A stretch of DNA of 64,000 nucleotides. It comes from Candidatus Helarchaeota archaeon. GTDB taxonomy: Archaea; Asgardarchaeota; Lokiarchaeia; Helarchaeales; RDOG01. Every line of letters begins with the position of its first letter. Within the stretch, counting starts at the first letter, position 1. The notes beneath the pieces are model-generated. The model saw only the letters and a list, made by a program, of their open reading frames with translations. It searched no databases and had not been told where the DNA came from. Shown piece by piece: positions 1 through 36,001 of this stretch. The DNA lies in assembly GCA_019058315.1 (NCBI GenBank), contig JAHPZH010000007.1, forward strand, positions 32,001 through 96,000. Direction: 5' to 3'. The position numbers and the translations under genes were made by a program.

Positions 1-3000
1 TTCTTAATTTTCTCGCTTTCTACTTCTCTAACGAAATAAGGTATTTTTTTTAAGTTAAATTTCTTTTCTTTTTGTAATTTCAGGATTAAATTCAAATGTA
101 AATAATGATTTAATGTTCTTTTTATTATTTTTCTTATTTCTTTTTCATCATTACTATTAAAATCTCTAATATTTTGAATTAAAGAAGTAAAAAATTCCTC
201 AGTCAAATTAGAATTAAAATATTTCAAAATCTCACAATGCAAATCATACCATTTTGCCCTTATTCCTGGTTTGGTATATATTGATTTTTTAAAAATCTCT
301 ACAACCCTTTTAAGCAACTTTTTTTTAGTTATTGGATGAATCCCCTCTATTAAATCATATCCAATTTTTTCATAATAAGAAATTTTTTTGGATGAATTAT
401 CTTTATTCCAATTAAATTGGAAAAAATTGTAAGAATAACGTTCCAACATATTTAATAAATCCCTAAGAGAAGAAATCTTTTTACAAATATCCGTATTGAG
501 AAAATGTAAAAAAAATTCTTCAAAATTCTTAAAATTATCCTCGTAATTATTTTTAAAGAATCTTATCACACTTGGAATTCGCTTATTACCTCTTTGCTCT
601 TTTTTTACTCTTCCACCAAGATCTTCAAATATCTTTAAATTTATGTTTTTTGAATCTTGGATATAGATATAAAAACTATCTCCATGCCACAGACAAATAT
701 CAATAGATTGCCCATGTTTGGTATTATTTAAGAGCAAGCTTAAATCTTCCTTTTCAATATCTTTTTTAAACTTAAAGAGAACATATTTTACACCGAATTT
801 AGTCATTCCTTCTAAATAATATTGTAATTCAGAAGTTTTAGAATCAAAACTCAATTGAGTTTCCCTGATTAAATGGGGATAGCTGATACCTGAAAAATCA
901 AATTTAGGAAATTTTTTTCGTCTTAAGATGATGTCGCATTTTTCATTAGCATAACCATATAATTTCACATATTTTCCAAAGGATTTTTTTAGAAAAATTT
1001 CTGTATCAAAAACTGGCATGAGTTTATAGGGCTCAAATCTTCTGTTTCTATAAATATTACTATCGTAAACCATTTGTGTTAATATAATTATAGAATTTGT
1101 CTCCCTTGCAATGAATTTTAACATTGTGGTAAAATTTCCTGCAATGCTTGCCCTCTTCCAAGTAGGAGATAGTTCTTCGTTATCTCCATTGATGGGAATA
1201 TTTCTTTGAATCTGAGTAATTAATGAGTTAACTATAATTAATTTGGGATGAAATTTATTCTTAATATCAATTAACCTTTGTAAGATCGAGTCTATATTAT
1301 CATTGTCGGAAAATGGGATGAAATGGACTCTCTTAAGATTTTCAATATTATAATTTTTAAAATTTCTAGAGATATCAGCTAAATTTTTATAAAAAGGGAA
1401 TTTTAAGTTATTTAAACAAACTACACTTTCTGAATTTAACCCATCCTCATGTTGTGCTGCTAACATGAGGTAACAGATTAAATCCATTAACTGTTTTTCT
1501 TCGTTTTTGTGACAAAAAATTAAGTTAAAGGAACCACAATTAAATCCTTCAGCTCGGCTTTTTTTCCAGCCAAATATTTCGATCCTTGTTCCCTTTTGTA
1601 TATTACGACCTAATTCAATTTTACCGTCAGAGATAAGTCTGATTTCATTTTCTTTAGGGATCTTATCAACAACCTCTAACTCTTCCCCTGTCCAATCGAA
1701 CTTTTTCTGAAGTGGAGGGTATATAATAGCCAAATTCATTTTAATTATTTTTTTATTTAATAAAATCTCAGTACCCTCTTTAAATTCCTGAGAAACCTCA
1801 AAAAAGATATGATTTTGTTCAGTTACTAATTTATCAATATCGGTGAATGTAGGAAAACAAGGTTTTGTTTCTGGAATGTGATCTATTGATTTAGAATAAC
1901 CGCTCTCAACCACATTAAAGTAAGTTTTTTTAAGGGAGAAGTTTTCATGATATTCTTCTTCATAATGGGGTAATAAATCACAAATCTTAATCCTACTCAA
2001 GAATTCAATAAAACTAATATATTGACCCAGTTGTAAAAACTGATAACCGCCATCCACACATTTATTCATGGGATCTAATACAGTTAGAGCAGTTTTATGA
2101 CCCATGCTTTTATTAAAAATGTTGTGAAGGTCAATTTTTTTGGATGTTCGTATAGCTATTTCTTTTGTAGTCCAACAAATGATTTTAATATCTATGTTTT
2201 CTGGATTTCTTCCTAAGTTTTTAATCAAGGTATTTATTTTCCTAATTGGAATATCTTTTTTTAATTCAAATGCTGCATAATTAAATCCATTCCGAGTATT
2301 CCCAAATTCGTAAAAATAGAGTAGCTTCTCAGGATTTTTAAGGAGATTTTCTCTCCGTTTTAAAAATTTTTCCAACTCTTTTGTTTTATTTGGCTTTGAA
2401 TATGCACACACTTCACGGAAAAATTTAGCAAAATCTATATTTTTTATAAATCTGAAGATATTATAAAGATAAAATTCATAAAAATCAAACCAATCATTTA
2501 TATAATTATTTTCATTAATGGTCGCAATCCAATTTTTAAAATTCTTAAGATTTGGTCTACCATATTTATTAAAAAATTCATCTTCATCAACAATTTCGTT
2601 AACATATTGAATTGTTAAATCATAAGCTTCCCTTTCTTTGGAATATAAAAACTCCCCATTATGTTCTTCAAATAGACTTTTTATATTATTTAGGTCATTT
2701 TCAGATTCTATTACTGGGTGATGATCAAACCAGATTAATTTGAAATTAAAGTATCTGTCTTCAAGTTGCTCAAAAAATATTTTAAGGAATTTTTCTCGAC
2801 CTGGTAAGAATGGAATGTCTGCAACATAAATATAATTCATCATATCGTGCTTTAAAGACTTTAAAACTTTATTTTCAAGAACCTTTTCAATATAGTTTAG
2901 ACCATATCTATTTGTTGCTGGAAAGATCGATAATATGTTATTTTTTCCTTGATGTAGAAATGTCAAGTTTACAGCAGACTTAAAACCATCCTTATCAACA

Positions 3001-6000
3001 TGAGGAATAATGCAGACATTTATCCAAGGTTCTAACTCAGGAATTCCCTTCTCCTTAGGAGATAAGAAAAAATCTAAGATTGTTAGGGTATCTTGAATCA
3101 TAATATTTCTATAAAATAGATCTTCATCCTCCAACTCAATGTATTGGGGAATATTCCCATTTCCCAAAATAGAGTCAATTATATTTACAATATTAAAAAC
3201 CCATTTTGCTTCTTTTTTTGTTTCAAAGGCACAAAAAGGAATATATTCAATATTATTTTTTGATTTCAAGAATTGAGCAAGATTTTTAGCTTCGAGCTCC
3301 ATAATCTGGAGCATAGATAATTCTTTATTCTTATAATAGAATTTTTTTGAACATACATCTTGGAATAATGTATCTAGTTTTTTCTTTGCCTTACATTTAC
3401 TTGAAACATAAAATAATTCTCTCCCTAATTCGTCCATTCCCCTCCATACGTCTTTTCTAAAAATTCTATTATCTATAAACATTTCAACTAAATAATATCT
3501 TAATGGTGGTCTATAAGCATCCATGAAATCAAAAAGTAACTCCTTATTTTTCTTAGTCATTGCCCCATAAAAGGTCTCATTTCTTTTCCCGCTATTTGCA
3601 CGATAATGCAATATTCCAGGTCCAGGGAAAAATCGATTAAATCCGACTTTACCTAAAGCTTTGCCTGCTTCTTTTTGTAATAAAATATATAGATAATTCA
3701 AGCATGCATTAAACACATCATAAGCCTTTGCACCATAATAAAAAATTGTCTCGGCGTATCTCTGTGCTTGCCGGCCAACAAAGCGAAATTTTGGGGGTAA
3801 AGCCCGTTTGATCACTTCCCAAGCATTTTTTTCTGAATTTCCTTCAGCAGAACGTAATCTATTCATGATATCTATTATTTCTTGTTCATTATGAGGTTCA
3901 TAAGAAGCATTATAAAATAAATATGTTAAAAGCAACCAATCAAGTTGACCATAAAGGAGTTTATCTTGATATTTCTTTATAACCCACGGTTTGTTTAATT
4001 CTGTAATGAATTTCGAGACTAATTTTCTTGTATAAAGCACATTTGACATTATTTTTGCAAAAACCATTTGTCTACCGACTTCCATCAAATCCCCTTTTGC
4101 TCTCCGATCTATTATTTTATTTCTAATCAAACTCTCGGATCTTTCCCTTTTCTCCGCTTCAAGTATTTCTTCTTTGTTATGTTCAATTAATTCTATTCGA
4201 TGTAAGTCAATAAAATTCATTGCTTCTTTACTTATTGTCCCTCCGAATAATTCAATTCTTCCCACCGCATCTATAAAGTAACGTCTTTTATTACCAGATA
4301 TATAAAAACGAAATACTTTATCTTTCGAGTCATAATCAACCCGTAATTCATGTCGCTTTTTCACAATTAGATTGTACGCATAATTTTTAACATTAGCTAT
4401 TAAAAAGCCATTAATTTCTTTGATTTTATTAGTTATTTGTTTATAAATTCCTGTTTTTCCCTCAAACATTCCCCTCTCTCCCATATATACCACTAATTTA
4501 CAATTCTTACAAATTGATGCAACTCCATATATGGGAATTAATAGTGTATTTATTTCACCACATTCAGGGCATTTTGGTTTGTCATCATGAATTTCAAAAC
4601 TTTTAAATTGAATATATTTACGTTCTATTTCTTCAAAATCATCACATATTTTTTGCTTTGGAGAACGTTCTTTTTTCTTAAAATTACATCTATATCTACA
4701 ATTTATTCTCTTTCTTCGATCATGAGGATGTTTTTGCAAGTGTTGGCAATCTTTACATGTTTTTTCTTGAGATTTTTCAAAATATTTCTTTAAAAAATAT
4801 CGATATGGAGGTCTTCCTATTACTTGATATTCTTGAACACAAACAACTCTATCTGAAAGTTTATCTAAGTGTGCTCTAATTTTACGAAGACTAATATCAC
4901 CATAAAGATTCATATACAACTCTTTTACTGTTAGTCCATTTTTACCAGCTATTTCTAATAGCTTTAATATTTCTTCATCAAGCATTGAAGGAGCTTTATT
5001 TCTCCAATTAATCTTGTGACGCCAAATCCCCGGTTTTTTACCTTTCTTTTCGATTTCTTCTTTTTGGTAACGTCTATAGATCTTATTAAGGGTATGAAAT
5101 ATTGTCTTATTTTCATCAAATACTCTAGTAAAATCAACTTCGTAGTAATTTTGTCCCTTCTCTTTAACAATTTTTTCGACATATTCATGGATTCTGCAAC
5201 CTTCACAGAAGAGATATAATGATGCAGCAAGCCAAATACTGGTTTTTCGATAATTTTCAATATCTCCATCATAAAGTCCTTTTTTATAATTCTCTTTTTC
5301 TTCTTGTTCTAGATCCCAGCGATAATTCTGTAATAAATCTCGAATTTTATCTTTCTTTTCTAGTACATAATCCCTTTGAAGTGCTTTTAAATCTTGAAAC
5401 CTAGGGTCCTCTTTAAGAAGAATCTTTGTTGCAGTATTAGTAAGGATATTGATACAAGAGCTGGGCGAGGGCTTATTATTATATAAAAACAAAAATGAAA
5501 ATTCATCAGCAGTTAAAATATCAACTTGCGATTCAACTGCTGCCTCCCCTATATATGTGAGCCCCATCACCTTTTTACTTGATCTTATATAAATTGTGTT
5601 AAGCAGATCATTGACAATTCTCCTAAGTCTATATCGAACATATCTATGTGTTAATCTTGTAAATTCATCACGCGTTATTTTTTTCCTTATATCTTCTGTT
5701 TCTTTTTTATTAATTTTATATAATTCCAAATTTCTTTCATTTTTTGCCCTTAAAATGAGCTTTTTAATATATTTCTTCCATTTTTTAAAAGATATTTGAT
5801 GATAAAATAACCTTTCAATTGCTAACTTTTCAATATCTTTTAAAGTAATTCTGCTTCTAATCTCATCAAGCTTAAAACCTCTAAAACGAAAATTCTTAGG
5901 TATTTTTTCTGATTTTTGATCTTGCTCTTTTATTTTCTTATCCTTGATTAGAAGAATTTTCTCTTCAAAATCATTTTTCAATAATTTCGAAACAAAAAAT

Positions 6001-7292
6001 ATTATATTCCCTTCTTTTTCTCTGGTTCTACCAATCATTTGAGTAAGTTCAACTGAGTTATAAATTTCAGCATCAGTTATTAGTATTGTATGGATGTTCT
6101 TGATATCTACTCCAACTTCCAATACAGGACTGCAAAAAAGGAATCGAATTTTATCATCCTTCATAAATTCGTTAAATTTTCTTTTTCTAATCTCTAAATC
6201 CAACCCTGCATGTATGTAATCAACATGAAAAGCAACTTTTTTTTCATTAATAAATTGCATATATTCTTCAAATTCTCTACCATATTCAGTATCAAGATCT
6301 GAAAATACAGCATTTGCGATATAATTTTTTGGATTAACATATGGAACCTTACCAAAATTTTCCCATACGAACATAGCGAGGGCTTCTGCAATCCTACGGC
6401 TATAGGTGAAAATGAGCATTTTGCCAGAAGTTTTTTTATCATTTTTCACAATATCATATAAAAATTTCTCACAATGTTTCAATGTTCTAAATAGCTTTTC
6501 ATAATATGCCCTAATATTATCAAACTTTAAGCGAGTCTTAATGAACTTTTCAACATCTGAAAATTTGTATTTTTTCAATAACTTTTTTCTTTCCCTCTTC
6601 CATATATGTTTAAAATCACCATATTTCTTTTGAATTATTTCTCCTTTAAAATTTCGTTCATTTGATCTAAAAATAAGTTCACAATTAAATTTTTTAGCCC
6701 AATTTTCTGCTGATTTTCTTTCAAAACTCCCACTTAAAAAACAAAATTGAACATCTTCATGCTCACGCTGAATTTTATATAACATCGTTTCGAGTTTTAA
6801 GCCACGAGATCTTTCTCCTAATTTATGAGCTTCATCAATAATAACCGCTCCAAATATTTTCTTTCCATAGAAATATCTTCTCTTTTGTATCTCAAAAAGG
6901 AATGAGCGAAATGCTTCATATGTTGCGATAATTATTGCATTCCCCATAGCATTTCTTAAATCATCAAGAGCAGGTCTAATTTCTGCTTGTAATTTTAATA
7001 TTTTTATTTCTCTTTGATATTCTCTTTCTAATTCAATAGCTTTTTGATGTAAAAGCATCACTGTCGGAACCAAATATACAGGAATTAAATTTCTGACTAA
7101 AGCCATTGTAGTACAAATTTTTGCAATTTCGGTTTTACCCATACCTGTTGGTGCAACTACAAAAACACTTCGACCTTTAATTACAAATTTATATCCTTTT
7201 TTTTGATATTTATGTAGTTTGCTAAGTAAGAAATTTCTACGCTTCGAACTCTTGTCTGCCTTCTCAATATTTCTAGAAATCGTCTCAAACAT
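1..7292 (-). CDS. Giant multidomain protein (>=2430 aa, 3'-truncated by window): Ski2/Hel308-like helicase + wHTH + Cys/Zn modules + Cas1 + DHH/DHHA1 + degenerate RecA-like + second DHHA1-like
   Basis: Manual translation from ATG 7292 (MFETISRNIE...) to position 3 finds no stop. Helicase motifs: APTGMGKT (7131-7154), IIDEAH (DEAH 6825-6836), LSGS, LIFTYSRR, HAGL, LEVGVDI, QMIGRTR (6021-6041). Cas1 motifs: LRSAEG, FVGR..AYDVFNACLNYLY, GILH, LLFDFMDAYRP (~3230-4380). DHH motifs: HVDKDG (2985-3002), YVADIP, WFDHHP (DHH 2718-2726). Confidence 0.9.
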   Translation of the reverse strand, partial: MFETISRNIEKADKSSKRRNFLLSKLHKYQKKGYKFVIKGRSVFVVAPTGMGKTEIAKICTTMALVRNLIPVYLVPTVMLLHQKAIELEREYQREIKILKLQAEIRPALDDLRNAMGNAIIIATYEAFRSFLFEIQKRRYFYGKKIFGAVIIDEAHKLGERSRGLKLETMLYKIQREHEDVQFCFLSGSFERKSAENWAKKFNCELIFRSNERNFKGEIIQKKYGDFKHIWKRERKKLLKKYKFSDVEKFIKTRLKFDNIRAYYEKLFRTLKHCEKFLYDIVKNDKKTSGKMLIFTYSRRIAEALAMFVWENFGKVPYVNPKNYIANAVFSDLDTEYGREFEEYMQFINEKKVAFHVDYIHAGLDLEIRKRKFNEFMKDDKIRFLFCSPVLEVGVDIKNIHTILITDAEIYNSVELTQMIGRTREKEGNIIFFVSKLLKNDFEEKILLIKDKKIKEQDQKSEKIPKNFRFRGFKLDEIRSRITLKDIEKLAIERLFYHQISFKKWKKYIKKLILRAKNERNLELYKINKKETEDIRKKITRDEFTRLTHRYVRYRLRRIVNDLLNTIYIRSSKKVMGLTYIGEAAVESQVDILTADEFSFLFLYNNKPSPSSCINILTNTATKILLKEDPRFQDLKALQRDYVLEKKDKIRDLLQNYRWDLEQEEKENYKKGLYDGDIENYRKTSIWLAASLYLFCEGCRIHEYVEKIVKEKGQNYYEVDFTRVFDENKTIFHTLNKIYRRYQKEEIEKKGKKPGIWRHKINWRNKAPSMLDEEILKLLEIAGKNGLTVKELYMNLYGDISLRKIRAHLDKLSDRVVCVQEYQVIGRPPYRYFLKKYFEKSQEKTCKDCQHLQKHPHDRRKRINCRYRCNFKKKERSPKQKICDDFEEIERKYIQFKSFEIHDDKPKCPECGEINTLLIPIYGVASICKNCKLVVYMGERGMFEGKTGIYKQITNKIKEINGFLIANVKNYAYNLIVKKRHELRVDYDSKDKVFRFYISGNKRRYFIDAVGRIELFGGTISKEAMNFIDLHRIELIEHNKEEILEAEKRERSESLIRNKIIDRRAKGDLMEVGRQMVFAKIMSNVLYTRKLVSKFITELNKPWVIKKYQDKLLYGQLDWLLLTYLFYNASYEPHNEQEIIDIMNRLRSAEGNSEKNAWEVIKRALPPKFRFVGRQAQRYAETIFYYGAKAYDVFNACLNYLYILLQKEAGKALGKVGFNRFFPGPGILHYRANSGKRNETFYGAMTKKNKELLFDFMDAYRPPLRYYLVEMFIDNRIFRKDVWRGMDELGRELFYVSSKCKAKKKLDTLFQDVCSKKFYYKNKELSMLQIMELEAKNLAQFLKSKNNIEYIPFCAFETKKEAKWVFNIVNIIDSILGNGNIPQYIELEDEDLFYRNIMIQDTLTILDFFLSPKEKGIPELEPWINVCIIPHVDKDGFKSAVNLTFLHQGKNNILSIFPATNRYGLNYIEKVLENKVLKSLKHDMMNYIYVADIPFLPGREKFLKIFFEQLEDRYFNFKLIWFDHHPVIESENDLNNIKSLFEEHNGEFLYSKEREAYDLTIQYVNEIVDEDEFFNKYGRPNLKNFKNWIATINENNYINDWFDFYEFYLYNIFRFIKNIDFAKFFREVCAYSKPNKTKELEKFLKRRENLLKNPEKLLYFYEFGNTRNGFNYAAFELKKDIPIRKINTLIKNLGRNPENIDIKIICWTTKEIAIRTSKKIDLHNIFNKSMGHKTALTVLDPMNKCVDGGYQFLQLGQYISFIEFLSRIKICDLLPHYEEEYHENFSLKKTYFNVVESGYSKSIDHIPETKPCFPTFTDIDKLVTEQNHIFFEVSQEFKEGTEILLNKKIIKMNLAIIYPPLQKKFDWTGEELEVVDKIPKENEIRLISDGKIELGRNIQKGTRIEIFGWKKSRAEGFNCGSFNLIFCHKNEEKQLMDLICYLMLAAQHEDGLNSESVVCLNNLKFPFYKNLADISRNFKNYNIENLKRVHFIPFSDNDNIDSILQRLIDIKNKFHPKLIIVNSLITQIQRNIPINGDNEELSPTWKRASIAGNFTTMLKFIARETNSIIILTQMVYDSNIYRNRRFEPYKLMPVFDTEIFLKKSFGKYVKLYGYANEKCDIILRRKKFPKFDFSGISYPHLIRETQLSFDSKTSELQYYLEGMTKFGVKYVLFKFKKDIEKEDLSLLLNNTKHGQSIDICLWHGDSFYIYIQDSKNINLKIFEDLGGRVKKEQRGNKRIPSVIRFFKNNYEDNFKNFEEFFLHFLNTDICKKISSLRDLLNMLERYSYNFFQFNWNKDNSSKKISYYEKIGYDLIEGIHPITKKKLLKRVVEIFKKSIYTKPGIRAKWYDLHCEILKYFNSNLTEEFFTSLIQNIRDFNSNDEKEIRKIIKRTLNHYLHLNLILKLQKEKKFNLKKIPYFVREVESEKIK

Positions 7293-7594
7293 AATATCAA
7301 ATGAACAGCATCAGTAAAAAATTATAATTTCAAAGAAATCTCTAAAGTGTTTAAAAATTTTTTTAAATTAATTTTTTGAAATTCAAAATTACTAATTTAA
7401 ATTTAAAATTTTAAATAATTTATTAATTTTTGTTAATTCCATTTTTAAATATCATAATTTATTTATAAAGCCGAAGTGCCTAAATATCCGACTATTATCT
7501 ATTAGTCTATACCATTAATGGTAATTAAAGAAAACATATTTTCTAAAATGTAAGTGGAATATAAATAAATTTAAATGAAGTTAAAAATGATAAA

Positions 7595-8620
7595 TCATAG
7601 AAAATTACCAGAATTAAGTTCACTTAATAAAAAATTTTTTTCTATTCCTTTATAATAACCTCTCGTAACAAGGCTACCCTCTAGAAATCCGATTTTCCTT
7701 AAAAAACTTTTTTTATCTTTTTTCCTTACGATTAATAAATGGGTATATTTATCATTGATTAAATAATTGATGTTAAAATGATTATGAATTTCTCCTATTT
7801 CATATAAGAAATCAAGATTTTTTTGAGCCCCAATAAGCCAAAATCTCTTATATTTTTTGGATACAGTTATACCCCCATCATCTGCCCAAAAACATCGAAG
7901 AAACTCTCGTTTAAATTCGGAAGGACCAGCCTTTATCACTTCTGGAACTTGAATATTATTTGATTTACAACTGTAAGATGGTGCATATTTCATTAAATCT
8001 TGAATAGCTAAAATTGAGTTGTAATTAATAGATACGCAATTTTTATGGTTTTCATCAAATATACCATTATTTTCAAGTCCATATACAGTTTTCACATCAT
8101 TGATAAACTGCTGAATTACTTTTGGTGATGAACAGATAAATCTAAAGTAATTATTTCCTTTTCTATCATTGACAGAACCATCAAAAAGCATATGACTAAT
8201 GATTCTTATTTTTTCAATTGTCATTTTCTCTTGTTCCTTTATTGGTTTATATCTACTTTCTTGAAACTCTTTTGACTTCCATTTTTGTTTCATTATACGA
8301 CTAAAATGAATTCGACTTTGTTCTCTTTTAGAGGGGGTTACATTTGCAAGCTTAGCCCCCTTACTACAACCCCAATTTGGGGGGAATACTACAAATTGGA
8401 AGTCATATTTTGATTTACTGATAATTTTCAGACACTCAATAAATAAAGATTCCGGAATTGTAGATATTCCAGATCTATAATTATATAAATTATTCTTTGG
8501 TATATCCATCTTAATTGAAAGTTGCTTAAAAGTAACTTTCTTCCTTAATAAATCAAAGAATTTCTTCAAATCTAGTTTTTCTAATTTAATCCTGTTTTCT
8601 TTTGTATTTCTACCTTTCAT
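7595..8620 (-). CDS. Free-standing double-motif LAGLIDADG (DOD/intein-type) endonuclease with N-terminal HTH
   Basis: IISHMLFDGSV and FLRCFWADDGGI motifs; N-terminal TFKQLSIKMDIPKNNLYNYRSG is HTH-like; no intein splice motifs. Confidence 0.75.
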   Translation of the reverse strand: MKGRNTKENRIKLEKLDLKKFFDLLRKKVTFKQLSIKMDIPKNNLYNYRSGISTIPESLFIECLKIISKSKYDFQFVVFPPNWGCSKGAKLANVTPSKREQSRIHFSRIMKQKWKSKEFQESRYKPIKEQEKMTIEKIRIISHMLFDGSVNDRKGNNYFRFICSSPKVIQQFINDVKTVYGLENNGIFDENHKNCVSINYNSILAIQDLMKYAPSYSCKSNNIQVPEVIKAGPSEFKREFLRCFWADDGGITVSKKYKRFWLIGAQKNLDFLYEIGEIHNHFNINYLINDKYTHLLIVRKKDKKSFLRKIGFLEGSLVTRGYYKGIEKNFLLSELNSGNFL

Positions 8621-8667: not shown

Positions 8668-9969
8668 TCATTTTAGAAAATTCGATAAAAACGTTTGATT
8701 CTTAAAAAAGAGGCGGTAATCAAATTTTTGCATGTTTTGTAATGTTTTTTTAGTTTTTCTCCCATATTTTTTTATAATATAGTTTTGCATCTCATCTGGG
8801 TCTACTGTATAAGGGACTTCAATCAAAATTATCCCATTTTCTTTACATATTTTTCTTTTTATTTGGTCTCTTTTTTGTTGTTTTTTGAATCTTTTTTCAG
8901 TGGAGTGGAAAAATGAGTTATATTCATAATGCTGTAATCCATTATATTCAAATGCTAGTTTTAATTCTCGATTATAGCCATCTAGATGCATTTTTTCAAT
9001 TTTATAATCTCCAAATTCAATTTGATATTTTTCCAAAATTGTTTTATCAAGAAAAACATCATTTAAGGTAGTCGTAGGAAATTCTTTTTCAAATATTGCT
9101 TCAAAATAGCACCGACAAATTCGTTCATTAAATCCTTTCATACAATTAGGACACCAATGCCCCCTTAGAACATGTGTAGGTCTTGCTTCCCAGATATTTT
9201 TACATGCTCCGCATTGCCATTTATATTTCATATTAACATAAATATATTTTTTAGATGTGGATATTTTAGATAAAAATTTCCCAGGATAACCAGTCTTTTC
9301 CAAACCTATATCATATGCTATTTTATGCATCTCTGTTATAGAATGTCTTGCTTTTCCAGAACATCTTGGACACCAAGAATCCCCTCTTCGGATATGATCT
9401 GCAGTTGTTTCCCAAATATAGCCGCATTTCCCACATTGCCACTCATATTTTGTGTCTGTATTAATGTATTCTTTTGATAAGAATTTTCCTGGCTTCCCCG
9501 TGTTTTTTATTCCCATATCATGGGCAGCCTTATACATGTCATCTATACTAAGTTGAAGATTTTTCGCACAATTTGGACACCAAGCCCCCCTTCTCACATG
9601 ATCTGCCCTTGATTCCCAAATATAATTACATTTTCCGCATTGCCATTCATATTTTGTGTTAACATTAATGTATTTTTTTGATAAGAATTTTCCTGGCTTT
9701 CCCGTCTTCTTTAGACCTACTTCATGGGCAGTTTTATGCATTTCATCTATAGTGAGCCTACGATTCCCAGCACAATTTGGACACCAGCCCCCTTGCTTTA
9801 CTGAATCTGCCGTAACTTTCCATATATAGTTGCATTTTCCGCATTGCCACTTGTATTTTGTTTTAATATCAATATATTTTTTTGATAAGAACTTTCCTGG
9901 CTTCCCTGTCTTTTTTATTCCTATATCATGAGCTGTTTTATGCATATTTTTTATATCATATTTTTTCAT
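8668..9969 (-). CDS. Four-repeat Zn-ribbon (treble-clef/DUF4379-like) protein with C-terminal PD-(D/E)xK (Vsr/DUF559-like) nuclease
   Basis: 4x KYxWQCGxCxxIW...WCPxC; C-terminal LDGYNRELKLAFEYNGLQHY...RDQIKRKICKENGIILIEVPY. ATG 9969 preferred over track TTG 9987 because an AGGTG SD precedes it. Confidence 0.8.
   Translation of the reverse strand: MKKYDIKNMHKTAHDIGIKKTGKPGKFLSKKYIDIKTKYKWQCGKCNYIWKVTADSVKQGGWCPNCAGNRRLTIDEMHKTAHEVGLKKTGKPGKFLSKKYINVNTKYEWQCGKCNYIWESRADHVRRGAWCPNCAKNLQLSIDDMYKAAHDMGIKNTGKPGKFLSKEYINTDTKYEWQCGKCGYIWETTADHIRRGDSWCPRCSGKARHSITEMHKIAYDIGLEKTGYPGKFLSKISTSKKYIYVNMKYKWQCGACKNIWEARPTHVLRGHWCPNCMKGFNERICRCYFEAIFEKEFPTTTLNDVFLDKTILEKYQIEFGDYKIEKMHLDGYNRELKLAFEYNGLQHYEYNSFFHSTEKRFKKQQKRDQIKRKICKENGIILIEVPYTVDPDEMQNYIIKKYGRKTKKTLQNMQKFDYRLFFKNQTFLSNFLK
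9140..9960 (-). repeat. Intragenic tandem repeat, 4 units of ~204-207 bp
   Basis: GATAAGAA(T/C)TTTCCTGGCTT at 9476, 9680 and 9884 (204-bp period), with a degenerate copy at 9269. Confidence 0.9.
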
Positions 9970-10220
9970 ATAAACACCTAATTTCAAGATTTTTTTACTT
10001 AATAATATTATAGAATGCGCAGAATATATGTTTTGTTATATATAAAGAAGAGTTTTTGCGCAAATTTAATTTAAGGGTTATTAATTTTTCCATTAATTTT
10101 CATTATCTATTTATAGAATTCCATTAGGTAATTCTGGGTCACTTAAAAGGAGTAATAACAAAATAGATAATATTCAATTAATTATTAAAAAAAAAGTAAT
10201 GGAAAATAAACAGTGAAGAT

Positions 10221-28513: not shown

Positions 28514-31500
28514 TTAAAAAACTGAAGGTGCTTTTTTTCTTTTATCCTTATCTTCTTCCTTTTTCTTAACAGGTTGTTCTGAGACTAATTTTTTCTTTTC
28601 CACTTCTTTTATCTTTCTCACTCGATTTAATAATAGAACCATTATTAATATAATTGAAATAAATGGGAGAACATAAAGTAATAAAATGTTAGGAATGGAC
28701 ATAATTACTTCTGTTATATAAAGCCTTGAATATTTCAATTCAAGTCCATTATCTGAGAATAGATAAACTTGGATATGGAGATATTTTAGACCTATATCCC
28801 ATGGTAAGGTTTTAAATAGACAAGGAATTGCCATAACTTTAGAAGCAAAAGCATCAATATGTGAACTTATGAGCATTGGTTGAAATCCACCAGTGCCAAA
28901 AACACCAATTACAACACGAACTGGTGTAGATCGATAATTTTCAATCTCTACTGTAAGTAAAGTGGTTTGATCTTGGTAGAGGGCCACTGGAGTCACTATT
29001 GTACCTACTTCTAAGTCAGGAGTAACCTTAATTGAGAAATAATAATCTATTGAATAATTAACCCAAGAAACCTTAATATTTCCTGAATATTCACCATAAG
29101 GAACTAAATTTTTTACAGATAAAGGAATATAAAAATAAGATTCGGCATTTGGGGATAAAGTCTCATTCATTTCAACGTAATCTAAAGCCTCTGGCAGAAA
29201 TATCTCTAATGTAAAATTTAAATCTACTAATAATTTTTGATTTTTTACTTTTATAATTGCATAACGTAGATCTCCCTCTGCGATTTGAGTTGGAATTCCC
29301 ATTCTTTCTGGATCTGTAGAATTTTTAACATCTACTAAAAGAGTTTCATTACTTATGTATTTATCTTGAAAATACAAATTTGTTATTAATTTATAATCTT
29401 CTTTAGGAATTGTTCTCTCATCTAATTTTACAAGAACAATTTGTTTAGTATATCCTACGTCTACTAAATAATTAATTAGTGATGAATTTGTGATAAAAAT
29501 ATCCCCATGAGCAGTCAAATTAACCACTGCAGCCTCTCTTCTATCATTTTTTAGAGTAAGATTGCATTGTAAAAAGTCTCCTTGAGCCACATCATCAGTT
29601 AGACTGTCTATATAGGCAATATAAATTCCATAACCTACTTGGATATACATTTTAGTCACTGCACTAGCGTACCACATTTTAGGTTCAGTATTTGAAGGTC
29701 CACTTGTTGCAGTAATTGTAACATTATAAATTCCGATTGCCTCATCTATATTCCTAGTAGGTCCAAATGATATTGTTGCTACTCCATCCTTAGTAGTTAT
29801 GAACGTTCTATTAACATAAAGAGAACCATCAGGATTTAAAACTATAAAATTTACTCTTGCATTTGGGATTGGGGTAGAAGGTTTTCCTAGAAAAAAATCA
29901 GAGCTTCCATATGTCACATTTATAGTGATTCTATCCTCTCCTAAAATAAATTCCTTCCAACGTAAATAATTATCTTCATGAATTACTACATCTGATAATA
30001 CTCTTTTATTTTTTATAGCAATTGGTGAAGTCGGAAAGCCAAGTAGTTGATAATCTAGAGTGGTTTCTAATCTTTGTAGATATCGAACGTTCCATAATGC
30101 AGGACTAGAAGAATTAATTCCAAAAATACAAAAAATAATTTTTTCTGCATTTGAAATATTGATATATTCACCAATATAGAAATTATTACCGCTTGAGTTA
30201 AAGGTAGCATTCACTCTATAAATAAAACTCTGGTAAGTTATGCCTTCTATTGTATCAAGACCTATTATATTCAAAGTTACATTTGCATCTGTTATATTAT
30301 CTGTAAGATTATAATACAAAGATAAAGTCACATTCATAATTTCTCCATTAGGAGGATCTGTACTAGGAATAAAATCTGTGTCATCAGTTAACCAAGGTGT
30401 AGTAGTATCATTCCAATAAGTTGAATTAATTAAATTAAAGAATTTTACTAAACATTTAATTAATAAAGCGTTTGAATCAAGAATAGAGTATGAATATTGT
30501 GGTCTGATAAAATTTGTTTTATTGACGTTGTCTCTATACCCGAAGAAGTATATTATTTCATCTTGAAACTGAAAATTGAGATAGAACGAATTTATATTAT
30601 TCATAATCTTTTCTGCTTGATAATATATTGTATGATTTTGAGTAATTTTAAAAAGTTCAATAAAAGCTAATAGTGCCCAAGCATTTGATATGGAATTTTT
30701 AGATGTTTCCTGCTCTGAAAGAGGTAAAGACCAATTTGCAAAAAGATATGGATAAAAACCAGTATCATTAGAATCCCAGAGATATCTGAACATTAAATTT
30801 GCGAGATATTCAGACTGATTCAGAAAAGCTGTATTGTTTAAAATTTCATAAAATTTTATTAGACTTAGAATTCCGAGAGCATTAGCTTGAGTTTCTTTAT
30901 AGCTTAATGTAAGATTCCAAGCTCCTTCTGAATTTGGATTTAATGAAAGATAACCTCCTCCATTCGATGCATTCTTATCCCAGATTTCTTTAGTGGTATT
31001 TAATAAATAAAAAGTTTCATTTGCCATTTTAAAAGCATTTTGTGTAATATTCGAATTAATTTCACTAGTCTGATTTATTTGTAAGGCAGCTAAAATCGTC
31101 AAAAAATTACCAGCTATATCCCTTGTCTCATTCGAAAACGATTTATTTGTATTTATGTAACCATAATTTATAGGATCCCAAAATGTAGCATTAAGATATA
31201 ACCAAGTTTCATTTGCCCTCCTTAAATAATCCGAATTTCCAGTCTGATTATATAACTCTAATAAAGTTAAGACTGCAAACGCATTATCAACTAATCGAGT
31301 TTCATTTAAAGGATTTTTTAGATCGGTACCACATCTTTCTATAAATCCAGTCACATTAGCTTCGACAATACTATTATTAATATAAACACTTTGATTAGCT
31401 CTTAATTTGATATTTAAAAAACTATAAACCCTATCAATAAATGTGTCATAAGTGTTATTTTCATACCAGGAACGGGCATACATAATAGGACCCATTAGCT

Positions 31501-34500
31501 GATATAAGCTGGAAATTGATTCTAAAATCATAAAATTATTGTAAGCATATTTATTTTCTGTATCTAAACCTTGAAGAAATCCATCAGCATAATCTTCATC
31601 TGTCCAAAAAGTTTGTGTCAACCAAGTTAAAGTATCTTGAGCAATTTGGATGTAAGTCGGAAATTTTCTATAGAATTTAAAAATATAAAATCCCGCTGTG
31701 AAACTTGATTTATTAAAAATTAATATATTAACAGAAATAGTATAGCTTAATCTTGATACATTTATTGTAGTTTTATAGATATTATCCACAATATTAACAA
31801 AATTAAAAACCTGATCTATACCAATTATAATTGCAAAGGCAGTTGCATTTTGAAGTGGAATACCCTCATCATCAAAAATTTCAATTTCAATTTCATATAA
31901 ATCTTCAATTTTTCCTGTTATTTTCTGTTCAACTATAAAATTATTTGCTACTGGTGGATCTTTTAAATTCAATCGTATTTTATATAAATTAGTTAACGCT
32001 CTACATATGGAAAGCGAAGAATAAATATCCGCTTGGGGTGGATTAATAAATCCATTAAACGATGATTTATTTGCGTATGCACCCGCAAGAAAGTCTGGTG
32101 TCCAAAAAAAAGTATTAATAAAAAATGAAATATTTTCTGCCATAATATAGTGCGTATAGTTATTTGAAAAATCATAAAGATCTGAAAAAGCTAAAATTGC
32201 AAAGCTGTTATCTTTTAATGTTTTATTAGTATTAATAATGCCAAAAGTACCATTATAATATGAATAAAATCCTAAAAATCTCGAATCCCATAAATAATTC
32301 AACATAAAATCTGAAGTTTGATTTATTGTGGTATAATAAGTATCATTATTTACATCATTAGGATACTGTTTGAGATATTCTAATATGGTAAGAATTGCTA
32401 AAGAATTAATTAATGTTGATTTTTCATCTATTTCATGTAAAGGTTGCCAAGTATAATTGAATCTTGAGTAAAAGCCATAATTAATTGAATCCCAAAGCTT
32501 ATCTATAGTCTCATTTAATGTATAATTCGCCAAATTTAAAGCTTGAGTTCTGATTGTTTGATTTATTTGGTCATTACTTGCAATTCCTAAATTTGCTAAA
32601 ATAGCTAATAAATTATCATATAAATTCTTTGTATTATCAGTTGAGGAATTAGTTGAATTATATCCACCATTTACACTATCCCAAAATGTAAAATTCAAAT
32701 ATTTCCAAGTTGCATTAGCCAGTTCCAGATAACTAGTATCATTTGTGATATCATATAATTTTAGGAATGTAATAATTGCCCATGCATTATCTTTACATAA
32801 TGTAAGATTTGAAATTTGAGTTCCATTTACATCGGTTTCTGAAATAAAACCCAATGAAGTCATATTTCCAACTTTAAAATTATTAATGAGAAAATCTGTA
32901 GAATTTAAAGAATAATTTAACATTATTTGATCAATTGCAATTTTTGACCAATCAATAGCAGTATTCAACCCTGTAGATTCAATAAAATCTAAAATTGTAT
33001 AAATTGCATAAAAATTTTCTTCGGCAGATTTATTTAAATTGGTCCCATTAGTATTATAAAATCCAGAATTTAAAGAATCATAAAAACCTAATGTAAGTGA
33101 ACTTAAAGTAGTAAATAATCTTGACTCATAGGTTGAAAATGTTCTATTAGATAATATCAAATTCCATGATGCACCATATGATTCATTTAAAATAAGGTGA
33201 TTTAAATATATTTTTGCATAATATGGCGAGAAATCCAAATTGAAATTATAAATATTCGAATTTTTAGAGGTAAAATTAAATTTCTGACCTAAACCAAAAA
33301 TAGGACTTAACCCAGTATTATCTACAAATCCACTCAGAAAGATCATTGCATCTGCGTTTTCTAATTTATTTCCATCTGTATCATAAACAACGAGATTTGC
33401 ATCGAAATACCTTCCTAATGAGTTTAATTTTGAATTATTGACTTTTATATTTACTAAGGGAGAAAGAGATAATTTATCTTGACTTTGGGATACAGCTATT
33501 AATGCTCTAATCGCCATAAATTCAGAAAATGGGGTTTTTAATTCTCTAATATCAACTTCTTGCTTATAATAACCAGTAAAATACCCTCCAGTTTCATAAT
33601 CCCACAAGTAAAGATTAAGAAAATTCAATATTTCTTCAGATTTACTATAATATGTATAATTATTAGTATCTTCAAATAATTTACTATATGCTAAAATTGC
33701 CCAACTATTGTCTGATGTGGATTTATTCAATCCAATAATAGTTCCATTATGATTGGAATAATCAAAGAATCCTCCTAAATCGTTATCCCATAGAGAATTT
33801 TGGATGAAAATCAATGTTTTATTAATTCTGTCATAGTAAGTTGAATTATATATATCATCAGGAAAAAGCTCAAGATATCGTGAATGGACTAAAATTGATA
33901 AGCTATTTGAATCAAGCCTTTTTGCATCAATTCTATTTTGATGACCTGAAGAAATTCCCCATGACTCATTGGCTGAAGTATAAAATCCCCAAGAATCATT
34001 ATCCCACGTATTATTATTAATTAACTGTAGTGTAATATTCGCCATCTTTGTAGCATTACCTTGAAGTGATGGGTAAATGCTACTTATATTCGCTACCTCT
34101 AAATTTGCAAGAATTGTTAGGAAATGATCAAAGGTATAACGATTGATTTGGTTATTGAATGGTGAAGATTTATTATAATATCCTCCAGTAGCGTTATACC
34201 ATAATGTATTATTAATATAATGCCAAGTTTTGTTAATTTCTTGCAAATAAATTGTATCATTTGTTATTTTATAAAGTTCTGATAATGCAAGAAGTGCATA
34301 GGTATTTTCAATTAATGAGCTTGAATTTATTAAATCTCCATTTTTATCCGTTCCAATATAATAATAGCTTTCAGTAGAATTATTAAATGTTGAATTATAA
34401 AACGTTGAATTAATACGATTATAAATCTCAATAGAATTATTATAAATATAATTAGTCAGATTTGTCTCTGCACCCAATTCAAATAATGTTAGCATTGCTA

Positions 34501-36001
34501 GAAAATTATCTATAACCGTTTCATATTCCGAACCTTGGTATTGATCGTGATCACGGGTCAAAGACGTGTAAAAACCAATATCCTCTGGCCTTATATGCTC
34601 TAATAGAAGTCTCATTGTAGTATTAGCTCGTGTTAAATAAATATCAGGAAAACGAAATTCTAACAATCCTAAGATCGCAATAGAATTTGCTCTTGTACTT
34701 TTTTTAGTAGAGTTTTGAGCACTTGCACCAGAATCCATAGAATAATTATATATCTTATTATTGACGTCCCACAAATGATTATTAAGGAAATAAGAAATAT
34801 TTCGCCCCTGAAGATAATAAGTTATATTATTAGTTTTTTCATAAAGTTTTAAAAACGCTTGCATCGCCCATGAATTAGTTTCTAAATATTTAGTTGTGTC
34901 AGTAATCGAATAATTTAATCCTTGTAATACTATATCATAAAAATTATTCCATAGGAAATTAGAGATGTTTTCAGCTATTCTAACATAAGTTTCATTAAGT
35001 GTGGACTGGGATAATTCTAATAAAGAAAGAATACCAAGTGAATTTACATGAGTTTGATTTCCAAAATTCTTTATACTCCAATTTCTACTATAATTTAGGA
35101 CTAAACCGTTTGAAATGTTAAAATCCTCTAAAATCTTACTCATTATGGTCTCGGACCTTCTTAATGCATTTATTTGATATTCGTAATCGTATTCATAAGT
35201 CCGATATACCTCTAGATTCATTAAAATTGAAATTAAATTGTCTATTGTGTATTTAGAAAGATCATTAGTATCATTACTTTTAAAATAACCATAATATTCC
35301 GAATCCCAAAGTTCCTCATTCATATAAGTTAAAGTTTGATTGGCAATCTCCAGTAATGTAATATTCTCTGTAACTTCATATAACTTTAGTAGTGCCAAAA
35401 TTGCCATAGCATTGTCTGAACTATAGGTTTCATTTGAATAATTTGTTTCATTATCAAAATAATTAATAAAACCTGTTAAACCACCAGTTGAAACATTAAA
35501 ATAACAATTATTTAACAAGAAATCCATAGTTTGATTAGCTATTTGCAAATAATTCACAGATTTATTACTTAAATAAACATCAACAAGGTTAATTATCATT
35601 AATGCATTAGTTAAAGTATACTTTCTTGTGTTATTTTGGCTACCATTTAAATATACATACTCATAAAAACTCCCTTCACTCGAATTCAACAAATTTCTAA
35701 AAATGAAGTCGAATGAATTGTTAATATTATCAAAAACAAATTCCTTGTAGCGATAATAATAATTTGATAAATAAATATCTTCTTGACTCTCTATGTCGCT
35801 AGGTTCTTCGGGATATGGTTCTTGGGCTGAAGTTCCTAAAGGGGGAAGTTCATCAAGAACTGGTAAATCATCTGGCATAATTCCTGCATTATTTTCAGTA
35901 TAATTCGAATCTGGGGGAATATACTGATTTTGGGCAGTTATGAAAAAATTCATAATTATAACTGAACAAACGACTAAAATCGCTAGCGATTTTCTTCTCA
36001 T
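28514..36001 (-). CDS. Giant membrane-anchored surface glycoprotein with four (alpha/alpha)6 six-hairpin-glycosidase-like repeats and Ig-like domains
   Basis: Signal peptide; repeated LLxLYxxTxNxxYLxxAxxT...LWD....GFY motifs; dense N-x-S/T sequons; C-terminal TM with basic tail. Confidence 0.75.
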   Translation of the reverse strand: MRRKSLAILVVCSVIIMNFFITAQNQYIPPDSNYTENNAGIMPDDLPVLDELPPLGTSAQEPYPEEPSDIESQEDIYLSNYYYRYKEFVFDNINNSFDFIFRNLLNSSEGSFYEYVYLNGSQNNTRKYTLTNALMIINLVDVYLSNKSVNYLQIANQTMDFLLNNCYFNVSTGGLTGFINYFDNETNYSNETYSSDNAMAILALLKLYEVTENITLLEIANQTLTYMNEELWDSEYYGYFKSNDTNDLSKYTIDNLISILMNLEVYRTYEYDYEYQINALRRSETIMSKILEDFNISNGLVLNYSRNWSIKNFGNQTHVNSLGILSLLELSQSTLNETYVRIAENISNFLWNNFYDIVLQGLNYSITDTTKYLETNSWAMQAFLKLYEKTNNITYYLQGRNISYFLNNHLWDVNNKIYNYSMDSGASAQNSTKKSTRANSIAILGLLEFRFPDIYLTRANTTMRLLLEHIRPEDIGFYTSLTRDHDQYQGSEYETVIDNFLAMLTLFELGAETNLTNYIYNNSIEIYNRINSTFYNSTFNNSTESYYYIGTDKNGDLINSSSLIENTYALLALSELYKITNDTIYLQEINKTWHYINNTLWYNATGGYYNKSSPFNNQINRYTFDHFLTILANLEVANISSIYPSLQGNATKMANITLQLINNNTWDNDSWGFYTSANESWGISSGHQNRIDAKRLDSNSLSILVHSRYLELFPDDIYNSTYYDRINKTLIFIQNSLWDNDLGGFFDYSNHNGTIIGLNKSTSDNSWAILAYSKLFEDTNNYTYYSKSEEILNFLNLYLWDYETGGYFTGYYKQEVDIRELKTPFSEFMAIRALIAVSQSQDKLSLSPLVNIKVNNSKLNSLGRYFDANLVVYDTDGNKLENADAMIFLSGFVDNTGLSPIFGLGQKFNFTSKNSNIYNFNLDFSPYYAKIYLNHLILNESYGASWNLILSNRTFSTYESRLFTTLSSLTLGFYDSLNSGFYNTNGTNLNKSAEENFYAIYTILDFIESTGLNTAIDWSKIAIDQIMLNYSLNSTDFLINNFKVGNMTSLGFISETDVNGTQISNLTLCKDNAWAIITFLKLYDITNDTSYLELANATWKYLNFTFWDSVNGGYNSTNSSTDNTKNLYDNLLAILANLGIASNDQINQTIRTQALNLANYTLNETIDKLWDSINYGFYSRFNYTWQPLHEIDEKSTLINSLAILTILEYLKQYPNDVNNDTYYTTINQTSDFMLNYLWDSRFLGFYSYYNGTFGIINTNKTLKDNSFAILAFSDLYDFSNNYTHYIMAENISFFINTFFWTPDFLAGAYANKSSFNGFINPPQADIYSSLSICRALTNLYKIRLNLKDPPVANNFIVEQKITGKIEDLYEIEIEIFDDEGIPLQNATAFAIIIGIDQVFNFVNIVDNIYKTTINVSRLSYTISVNILIFNKSSFTAGFYIFKFYRKFPTYIQIAQDTLTWLTQTFWTDEDYADGFLQGLDTENKYAYNNFMILESISSLYQLMGPIMYARSWYENNTYDTFIDRVYSFLNIKLRANQSVYINNSIVEANVTGFIERCGTDLKNPLNETRLVDNAFAVLTLLELYNQTGNSDYLRRANETWLYLNATFWDPINYGYINTNKSFSNETRDIAGNFLTILAALQINQTSEINSNITQNAFKMANETFYLLNTTKEIWDKNASNGGGYLSLNPNSEGAWNLTLSYKETQANALGILSLIKFYEILNNTAFLNQSEYLANLMFRYLWDSNDTGFYPYLFANWSLPLSEQETSKNSISNAWALLAFIELFKITQNHTIYYQAEKIMNNINSFYLNFQFQDEIIYFFGYRDNVNKTNFIRPQYSYSILDSNALLIKCLVKFFNLINSTYWNDTTTPWLTDDTDFIPSTDPPNGEIMNVTLSLYYNLTDNITDANVTLNIIGLDTIEGITYQSFIYRVNATFNSSGNNFYIGEYINISNAEKIIFCIFGINSSSPALWNVRYLQRLETTLDYQLLGFPTSPIAIKNKRVLSDVVIHEDNYLRWKEFILGEDRITINVTYGSSDFFLGKPSTPIPNARVNFIVLNPDGSLYVNRTFITTKDGVATISFGPTRNIDEAIGIYNVTITATSGPSNTEPKMWYASAVTKMYIQVGYGIYIAYIDSLTDDVAQGDFLQCNLTLKNDRREAAVVNLTAHGDIFITNSSLINYLVDVGYTKQIVLVKLDERTIPKEDYKLITNLYFQDKYISNETLLVDVKNSTDPERMGIPTQIAEGDLRYAIIKVKNQKLLVDLNFTLEIFLPEALDYVEMNETLSPNAESYFYIPLSVKNLVPYGEYSGNIKVSWVNYSIDYYFSIKVTPDLEVGTIVTPVALYQDQTTLLTVEIENYRSTPVRVVIGVFGTGGFQPMLISSHIDAFASKVMAIPCLFKTLPWDIGLKYLHIQVYLFSDNGLELKYSRLYITEVIMSIPNILLLYVLPFISIILIMVLLLNRVRKIKEVEKKKLVSEQPVKKKEEDKDKRKKAPSVF

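Follow-up and report, generated by a model that had tools for sequence, protein, structure and literature searches.

A Cas1 domain within a giant helicase fusion protein of a Helarchaeon as the candidate transposase of an Asgard aCas1 element

What may be the function of a Cas1 domain that lies in the middle of a very long protein, with neither cas2 nor a CRISPR array in view? The question was raised by a first-pass annotation of the window, which is the whole stretch of 64,000 nucleotides analysed here (contig C7, positions 32,001 to 96,000), from a Helarchaeales-like archaeon with a 5.8-Mb assembly (G000; 94% complete). The annotation proposed an active integrase working without Cas2. The domain is part of a giant fusion ORF of 2766 aa, which starts at position 7292, runs out of the window at position 1 and, 1009 bases further left, ends at C7:30992. 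The giant and all other window features described below are encoded on the minus strand.

The Cas1 domain (aa ~970-1360; 3213-4385) was identified by Pfam, profile alignment, AlphaFold2 modelling, Foldseek and VIA searches, and family alignment. The Pfam Cas_Cas1 match (E 7.5e-10) is above the cut-off, and the AlphaFold2 model, for which 46 homologues were used as input, gave a mean pLDDT of 91.8. The top Foldseek and VIA matches of this model were all Cas1, the best being A. fulgidus Cas1 (4N06; Z 25.5, rmsd 2.8 over 260), and the Methanosarcina mazei casposase also matched well (6OPM; Z 24.3, rmsd 2.5 over 248). The N-terminal beta domain and the helical catalytic domain that characterize the Cas1 superfamily are both present, while the score of the domain stays below the TIGR00287 cut-off and far below every subtype cut-off.

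The Cas1 motifs listed in the annotation all lie in one open minus-strand frame, and the catalytic residues fall exactly at the bases given there. After alignment to 6OPM, E1150 (3843-3845) corresponds to E162 of the casposase, H1229 (3606-3608) to H232, and D1255 (3528-3530) and D1258 (3519-3521) to D244 and the catalytic E247, respectively, so numbered from the start at 7292; E1150, H1229 and D1258 thus provide, by sequence alignment to the casposase, the metal-binding Glu, His and Asp/Glu set of the superfamily. Family alignment agrees well with this assignment: of its 30 rows, all have E1150 and H1229, 29 have D1255 (Glu in the other) and 27 have D1258 (Glu in three). The numbering of 6OPM involves a 17-residue offset, which was worked out in this study and agrees with every residue quoted in PMC6977970. 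As to the structure-based comparison suggested by the annotation, the fold indeed matches both 4N06 and the casposase, and the equivalence of residues stands on profile sequence alignment to 6OPM and 4N06 plus this fold match, not on superposition of side chains. The dN/dS ratio of the domain was 0.15 against the C6 paralogue and 0.15-0.17 among paralogues, and by this measure the domain is under purifying selection. Judged from sequence and model, the Cas1 domain is confirmed as real and its active site as intact, and the domain is probably active.

The annotation also described a basic insertion of about 20 aa between the His and Asp motifs and assigned to it a possible role in target recognition. 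Such a basic loop is indeed present (3531-3605), but its net excess is 14 residues, because the His-to-Asp spacing is 26 residues here versus 12 in 14 of 14 stand-alone Cas1 proteins. The loop ranges from 10 to 34 residues across the fused family, with only its basic character and not its sequence conserved, and the pLDDT drops to 75-85 across it. The His-Asp loop of the casposase holds the single-stranded donor end through K238, N239 and Y243, of which only K238 contacts the element end base-specifically, N239 and Y243 stacking on that end, and it touches the target only through the backbone amide of E233; the target bases are read by R191/R192 in a different loop (PMC6977970). The latter aligns with the loop R1174-D1192 of the giant (3717-3773), in which R1174 and R1178 are invariant. 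Because target bases in the casposase are read by the R191/R192 loop and not by the His-Asp loop, the insertion more likely serves, by analogy, to hold the donor end or to bind DNA non-specifically, and a role in target recognition has become doubtful; variable length and conservation of basic character alone would also suit non-specific DNA binding over sequence reading.

The Cas1 domain is accompanied by several other domains in the same chain. The N-terminal part is a Ski2/Hel308-type SF2 helicase with a winged-helix and ratchet-like part (aa ~25-700; 5193-7220), identified by Pfam (DEAD and Helicase_C) and by profile matches to structures of Hel308 and Brr2 (E 1e-45 to 1e-64); K53, D153, E154, H156, Q418 and R422 are invariant, and the Walker A, DEAH and VI motifs are intact. 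Between helicase and Cas1 (aa ~770-931; 4500-4985), we could read from the sequence a putative winged helix and two cysteine clusters, which likely bind Zn (C846, C849, C869 and C883, invariant in 9 homologues; C908, C911, C928 and C931, invariant in 18). Cas1 is followed by a DHH/DHHA1 phosphoesterase fold (1968-3029), which carries motifs I-III and the DHH motif together with the DHHA1 fold, as in RecJ/NrnA, with invariant metal ligands D1433, D1435, D1492, D1523, H1524 and H1525. Pfam DHH was detected in 7 of 12 homologues, and the profile search against PDB sequences gave no match for this domain, whereas the fold search with VIA did (8A8K, Z 14.4; RecJ 2ZXO, Z 11.1). Next comes a RadA/Rad51-fold domain (918-1892; Foldseek RadA, E 1.7e-10; VIA DMC1, Z 18.8) without the Walker A lysine, the P-loop (GKT/GKS) being absent from every homologue row aligned, and it is predicted to be ATPase-dead. 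The variable C-terminal tail, the start of which occupies 1-917, gave no Pfam or Atlas lead. The core of the family is helicase-Zn-Cas1, the DHH and RadA parts being present in a subset of members; an exhaustive profile search yielded 35 clusters at E < 1e-10, chiefly long fusions or fragments thereof. In the C1 paralogue (1439 aa; L011:8417-12736), leucine-rich repeats after Cas1 replace the DHH and RadA domains. The window contains a second very long ORF (2495 aa; 28514-36001) with dispersed internal repeats and without PADLOC match.

The absence of cas2 and CRISPR array noted within the window was found to hold for the whole genome: we detected no PF09827 (cas2) match, no Cas4 and no CRISPR array genome-wide, two k-mer scans having given only fixed-period coding or tandem repeats. 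No cas operon or array is located left of the window, where the ORFs of C7 1-46000 encode housekeeping, RadA, TPR and HEAT proteins, and neither cas2, cas4 nor array was found in the called genes beside any fetched relative. The proposal of an active integrase independent of Cas2 is therefore in accord, as far as sequence can tell, with the intact catalytic set, the dN/dS of 0.15 and a genome without cas2 or array, even if a Cas2-free Cas1 is in itself not new, being known for casposases and V-C Cas1 (PMC6977970). Since Y1 transposase and serine recombinase were also not found in the genome, the Cas1 domain is the only recognised recombinase at the giant units; a helper transposase could be unassembled, because the genome is 94% complete.

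All five Cas1 matches of the genome are giant helicase fusions, located at unrelated loci. Three of these giants are arranged head-to-head with TnpB, one is near a RAMP trio, and the present copy has neither partner. In the set of 15 close loci with a visible upstream side, to which alignment scans added three loci and single-protein locus scans none, eight carry TnpB or a TnpB-related gene head-to-head (C6, two on C11, L023, L024, L025, L059 and L096), six carry the RAMP trio (C1, L057, L060, L061, L063 and L100), and only the present copy carries neither, although these loci are kin to each other and not independent draws. No tRNA was found at the present copy or at most relatives. Full RadA/Rad51 genes directly adjoin two giant relatives (L061:9077-10069 and L063:21-956). 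In a quick, midpoint-rooted tree, from which domains below 230 aa were left out and which was made without the published aCas1 references, the fused Cas1 domains form a single branch (SH-aLRT 100), separate from stand-alone and casposase-sized Cas1, as expected for divergent Asgard Cas1 outside the CRISPR-Cas1 and casposase clades. The closest named homologues are from Helarchaeota, and the spread is patchy, with a Cas1 match in 4 of 7 genomes of the order (giants in three) and in 8 of 301 in the phylum.

Signs of mobility were recognised in the family. The two copies on C11 share an 8.1-kb unit of TnpB plus giant with 81% identity, while their flanks differ, and further partial copies of this unit are present at the contig ends of C2 and C8. 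At four sites TnpB is followed by a sharply defined, conserved end, past which each copy continues into its own ordinary flanking DNA; the opposite end lies inside the last codons of the giant. Such ends of the C11-type unit, mapped on C11 to 722158 and about 730384, are asymmetric and resemble those of TnpB/IS elements, not those of casposons. Two copies in G006 have in common a stretch of 6.1 kb with 93% identity, which reaches from their promoter across the giant, their TnpBs and flanks being different, and a shorter helicase-Cas1 is dispersed in six copies in G097. At C2:383449-384600 and C8:1-87 of the present genome, TnpB codon 29 is joined to giant codon ~1925, which represents either an internally deleted copy keeping both ends or an assembly artefact. 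Between TnpB and giant of L024 (5858-6131), a duplicated promoter is followed by the start of a second TnpB, and this duplication suggests partner exchange at the promoter.

A different arrangement was observed at L047-L054 of G097 and G112 (for instance L047:5912-7114), where a helicase-Zn-Cas1 gene of ~1330 aa is followed by two genes of ~270 aa, the first with a Pfam RAMP match and each trailed by a repeat of ~130 nt. Each locus has two or three such repeats, 19 in total, and the sequence behind each is more variable. All 19 can adopt a common multi-hairpin fold, in which the changes look compensatory (consensus -27.3; -1.4 after shuffling of columns). The repeat is a candidate for the guide-RNA scaffold or for the element end of an ARAMP-type unit.

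The upstream side of the present copy differs from those of its relatives. About 180 bases upstream of the giant lies a 21-bp motif (7471-7491), a candidate cis site; a genome-wide search gave close matches at no more than two places, ahead of the present giant and of the C6 giant, and a third copy is in the metagenome sibling L096. Beyond this motif are located an HTH-LAGLIDADG gene (341 aa; 7595-8620), a gene for a protein of Zn-finger repeats that ends in a nuclease-like domain (439 aa; weak DUF2726 match; 8668-9987) and a promoter-like site in which two TGCGCA palindromes, 41 bases apart, enclose a TATA-like box (10016-10062), which is the probable right edge of the island. The LAGLIDADG gene is directly upstream of the sibling giant in L096, and it is found without any giant in L095 and L097, a homologue of the Zn-finger gene adjoining it in L095. 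Pairs of TGCGCA 40-41 bases apart occur seven times in the genome versus none for the reversed control pattern, sites elsewhere including C6:232334, C6:304396, C7:1369, C10:11210 and C11:793485, and they were also found in L095, L096 and L097. With the TATA-like box that they flank, such pairs lie upstream of TnpB (at C6), of LAGLIDADG-like genes and of genes for Zn-finger nucleases, and these sites possibly mark a repressor-controlled nuclease regulon; after the C7:1369 site, a short AbrB-like frame was read by eye.

In the sibling L096 the order is TnpB-related gene, the same promoter site, LAGLIDADG gene, 21-bp motif and giant, so that the present copy looks like the L096 layout after loss of TnpB, with the Zn-finger gene under the control of the promoter. 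Because the LAGLIDADG and Zn-finger pair occurs without giant in another Helarchaeon, it may be a separate mobile cassette. In that genome (L095:8410-11310) the pair is located at the 3' terminus of an M24 peptidase gene, and a second copy of that terminus is present, an arrangement like that of an integrative cassette. Two other views of this region lost ground: the TGCGCA pair as an element end, in view of its promoter-like position before several nuclease genes with no giant near, and the two genes as fixed parts of the element, in view of their presence without giant in L095. The sequence CGCA is present in casposase targets as well, a likeness that may be coincidence. At C6:230140-232380 (L090), the promoter site and a 632-aa gene with LAGLIDADG-like motifs are followed by the last 94 codons of a giant, with 74% protein identity to the window-type giant and the same stop codon; this remnant may derive from an element by deletion, or it may be a cassette that took along part of a former target.

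The edges of the present copy are less clear than those of its paralogues. No TnpB was found in C7 1-96000, and neither flanking repeats nor a conserved end like that described after TnpB in aCas1-TnpB elements, a similar form of which was seen at paralogues, were recognised here. Searches for terminal inverted repeats and target site duplications gave nothing above shuffled controls at the candidate edges, the true edges being uncertain, and no family B DNA polymerase is present among the neighbouring LAGLIDADG, Zn-finger, HTH, HEAT, TPR and radical SAM genes. Screening for an empty site through the flanking thiI-like, radA and radical SAM genes was fruitless because the relatives are too distant (~35% protein identity in flanking genes). 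Among sequencing runs, the stretch was found only in its probable source sample, with no RNA run listed. Left of the window are an HTH gene, two HEAT-repeat genes, a TPR gene, a RadA paralogue 11 kb left of the giant, and housekeeping genes. The HEAT-repeat gene pair (2543 and 557 aa; 9.4 kb), just left of the giant, is bracketed by a 39-bp direct repeat (36/39 identical, unique in the genome; L001:6895-6933 and L001:16373-16411, at C7:20895 and C7:30373), one copy of which is the 3' end of the HTH gene. A small HTH gene (55% identical) lies beside both the present giant (L002:6373-6894 = C7:30373-30894) and a C11 giant (L010:13417-13953), in opposite orientations, with a third, partial copy at the start of contig C2; it possibly marks a preferred insertion neighbourhood.

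Taken as a whole, these observations make it moderately probable that the giant is the Cas2-independent transposase of an Asgard aCas1 element, employing casposase-like chemistry without a polymerase. Sequence and model show the fold, the catalytic residues, the fusion architecture, the dispersed copies, the lack of cas2 and array, and the pairing of relatives with TnpB or RAMP genes. The five dispersed giants, duplicated units, patchy spread, own tree branch and lack of Y1 or serine recombinase speak for this reading; against it are the lack of inverted repeats, target site duplication, empty site and TnpB at the present copy, and the C11-type ends, which are not casposon-like.

The proposed transposition may proceed as follows. 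By analogy to the casposase (PMC6977970), the Cas1 domains would oligomerise, the single-stranded element end with its 3'-OH would enter a channel lined by the His-Asp loop, and it would be joined to target DNA read by the 1174-1192 loop. From the families to which the other domains belong, the Hel308-type helicase might unwind element or target and thereby expose single-stranded ends, the DHH domain might trim or resect these ends, the Zn and winged-helix module might bind the element ends, and the dead RadA fold might bind single-stranded DNA or the host RadA, thereby recruiting repair of the insertion. The partner gene would be an exchangeable accessory, TnpB in most relatives, with a role in homing by analogy to IS elements, in which TnpB cuts empty sites and thus favours retention (PMC10055086). 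At the present copy, the LAGLIDADG gene and the Zn-finger nuclease may fill this homing role or may be passengers, and this copy may have lost the capacity to move on its own.

Alternatively, the giant could be cargo, or a domesticated enzyme of DNA repair or defence with Cas1 as a branched-DNA nuclease acting together with the helicase, DHH and RadA folds, its copies having been spread within IS605/IS607-like units that another transposase moves, or with variable islands. This view, which we regard as unlikely, draws on the resemblance of the post-TnpB ends to generic TnpB right ends without inverted repeats, on the repair character of the helicase, RecJ-like and RadA-like folds, on the RadA genes beside two relatives, and on the location of the present copy among TPR and HEAT genes and of P0003, its closest homologue, in the vicinity of genes for TIR-like proteins and helicases. 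Against this view, neither a Y1 TnpA nor a resolvase was found in the genome, the giant is constant while its partner genes change, and PADLOC gave only generic helicase and Cas1 matches.

The pairing of 14 of the 15 close relatives with a predicted RNA-binding effector is what would be expected of a one-protein adaptation machine, in which DNA provided by the helicase would be trimmed by DHH and then integrated by Cas1 next to a gene for scaffold RNA, so that RNA-guided effectors without arrays (TnpB or the RAMP trio) would acquire new guides. The 19 structured repeats of G097 and G112, each with more variable sequence behind it, would fit as well, as would the guide-like hypervariable region described after aCas1-linked TnpB (PMC10691335). 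We consider this distinctly unlikely, since the DNA after the TnpB end is ordinary flank that differs at each copy, as at a transposon end, duplication concerns whole units with the giant in them, G000 showed no tandem spacers, and the present copy has no adjoining effector. More doubtful again is the extended version, according to which the giant captures, trims and inserts foreign DNA by scaffold-RNA genes, thereby reprogramming array-less TnpB or RAMP effectors, and would be a living, Cas2-free intermediate from Cas1 transposon to CRISPR adaptation. Ordinary CRISPR adaptation, with cas2 and array unassembled or elsewhere, is highly improbable, for even if arrays often fail to assemble and the assembly is 94% complete, Cas2, Cas4 and array are missing from 5.8 Mb and from the called genes beside the fetched relatives, and profile scores and tree branch both set the domain apart. 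An inactive remnant accounts for the probability left over from these readings.

To our knowledge, all characterised Cas1 transposases belong to casposons, which have a polymerase and inverted repeats. If the present family indeed moves DNA, Cas1 would drive a second, polymerase-free kind of transposition, by one polypeptide with its own helicase and nuclease. TnpB is the ancestor of Cas12, RAMP genes encode class 1 subunits, and LAGLIDADG nucleases are protein-guided; the pairing of the same integrase with any of these three bears on how the adaptation and effector modules of CRISPR met. The class itself has already been predicted in the literature. Because the fold of the isolated domain is predicted with high confidence and the unit ends of the C11 sibling are mapped, the published aCas1 prediction is now directly testable, the present copy being the less tractable member because its ends are undefined.

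Compared with known systems, the giant shares with the casposase of Methanosarcina mazei (6OPM; Hickman et al. 2020, PMC6977970) the Cas1 fold, an equivalent catalytic set and, under our working model, Cas2-independent integration, but the neighbouring family B polymerase, terminal inverted repeats, tRNA target and C-terminal HTH of casposons have no counterpart here, and Cas1 is placed inside a 2766-aa chain, with a longer His-Asp loop and on a separate tree branch. CRISPR-associated Cas1 of A. fulgidus (4N06) is the best structural match and the same catalytic chemistry is expected, whereas, unlike CRISPR Cas1 and its fusions (Cas4-Cas1, RT-Cas1), the giants are without cas2 and array and occur in several dispersed copies, and the helicase is Hel308-like and not Cas3. 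The helper nuclease and helicase activities predicted for the giant recall the Cas4, DnaQ and Cas3 partners of CRISPR Cas1. Aloposons were rejected as a match, Cas1 not being mentioned in Wu et al. 2022 (PMC8813620). Asgard aCas1 homologues are already catalogued in PMC10691335 and PMC8730458. According to the former (Altae-Tran et al. 2023), aCas1 beside TnpB is the likely transposase of a distinct transposon family, with Asgard aCas1-TnpB loci forming the groups Cas1H-Asgard-1 and -2; these are likewise divergent Asgard Cas1 without cas2 or array, and three paralogues in this genome plus five relatives adjoin TnpB or a TnpB-related gene, whereas at the present copy neither TnpB nor flanking repeats were recognised. 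The helicase-Cas1-DHH-RadA fusion does not figure in the text of that paper. The association of aCas1 with RAMPs is named ARAMP (Makarova et al. 2020, as summarised in PMC8730458), and six giant relatives, namely the C1 paralogue and five others, adjoin a RAMP-led gene trio (diverged Cas5/Cas7-like) without array, while the present copy has no RAMP gene, the only RAMP match of the genome being on contig C1. Both kinds of loci are published predictions, experimentally untried as far as PMC10691335 and PMC8730458 state. In the literature searched, the aCas1 source paper (Makarova et al. 2020) being outside its scope, we found nothing on Helarchaeota Cas1-TnpB or on the full domain set, and the architecture of the giant may already be described in that source paper. 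The present copy thus falls outside CRISPR adaptation modules, casposons, strict aCas1-TnpB units and ARAMP, and within the aCas1-type branch, to which this study adds the survey of partners, the LAGLIDADG-bearing layout without TnpB, the shared promoter site, and the assignment of the insertion to the loop that binds the donor.
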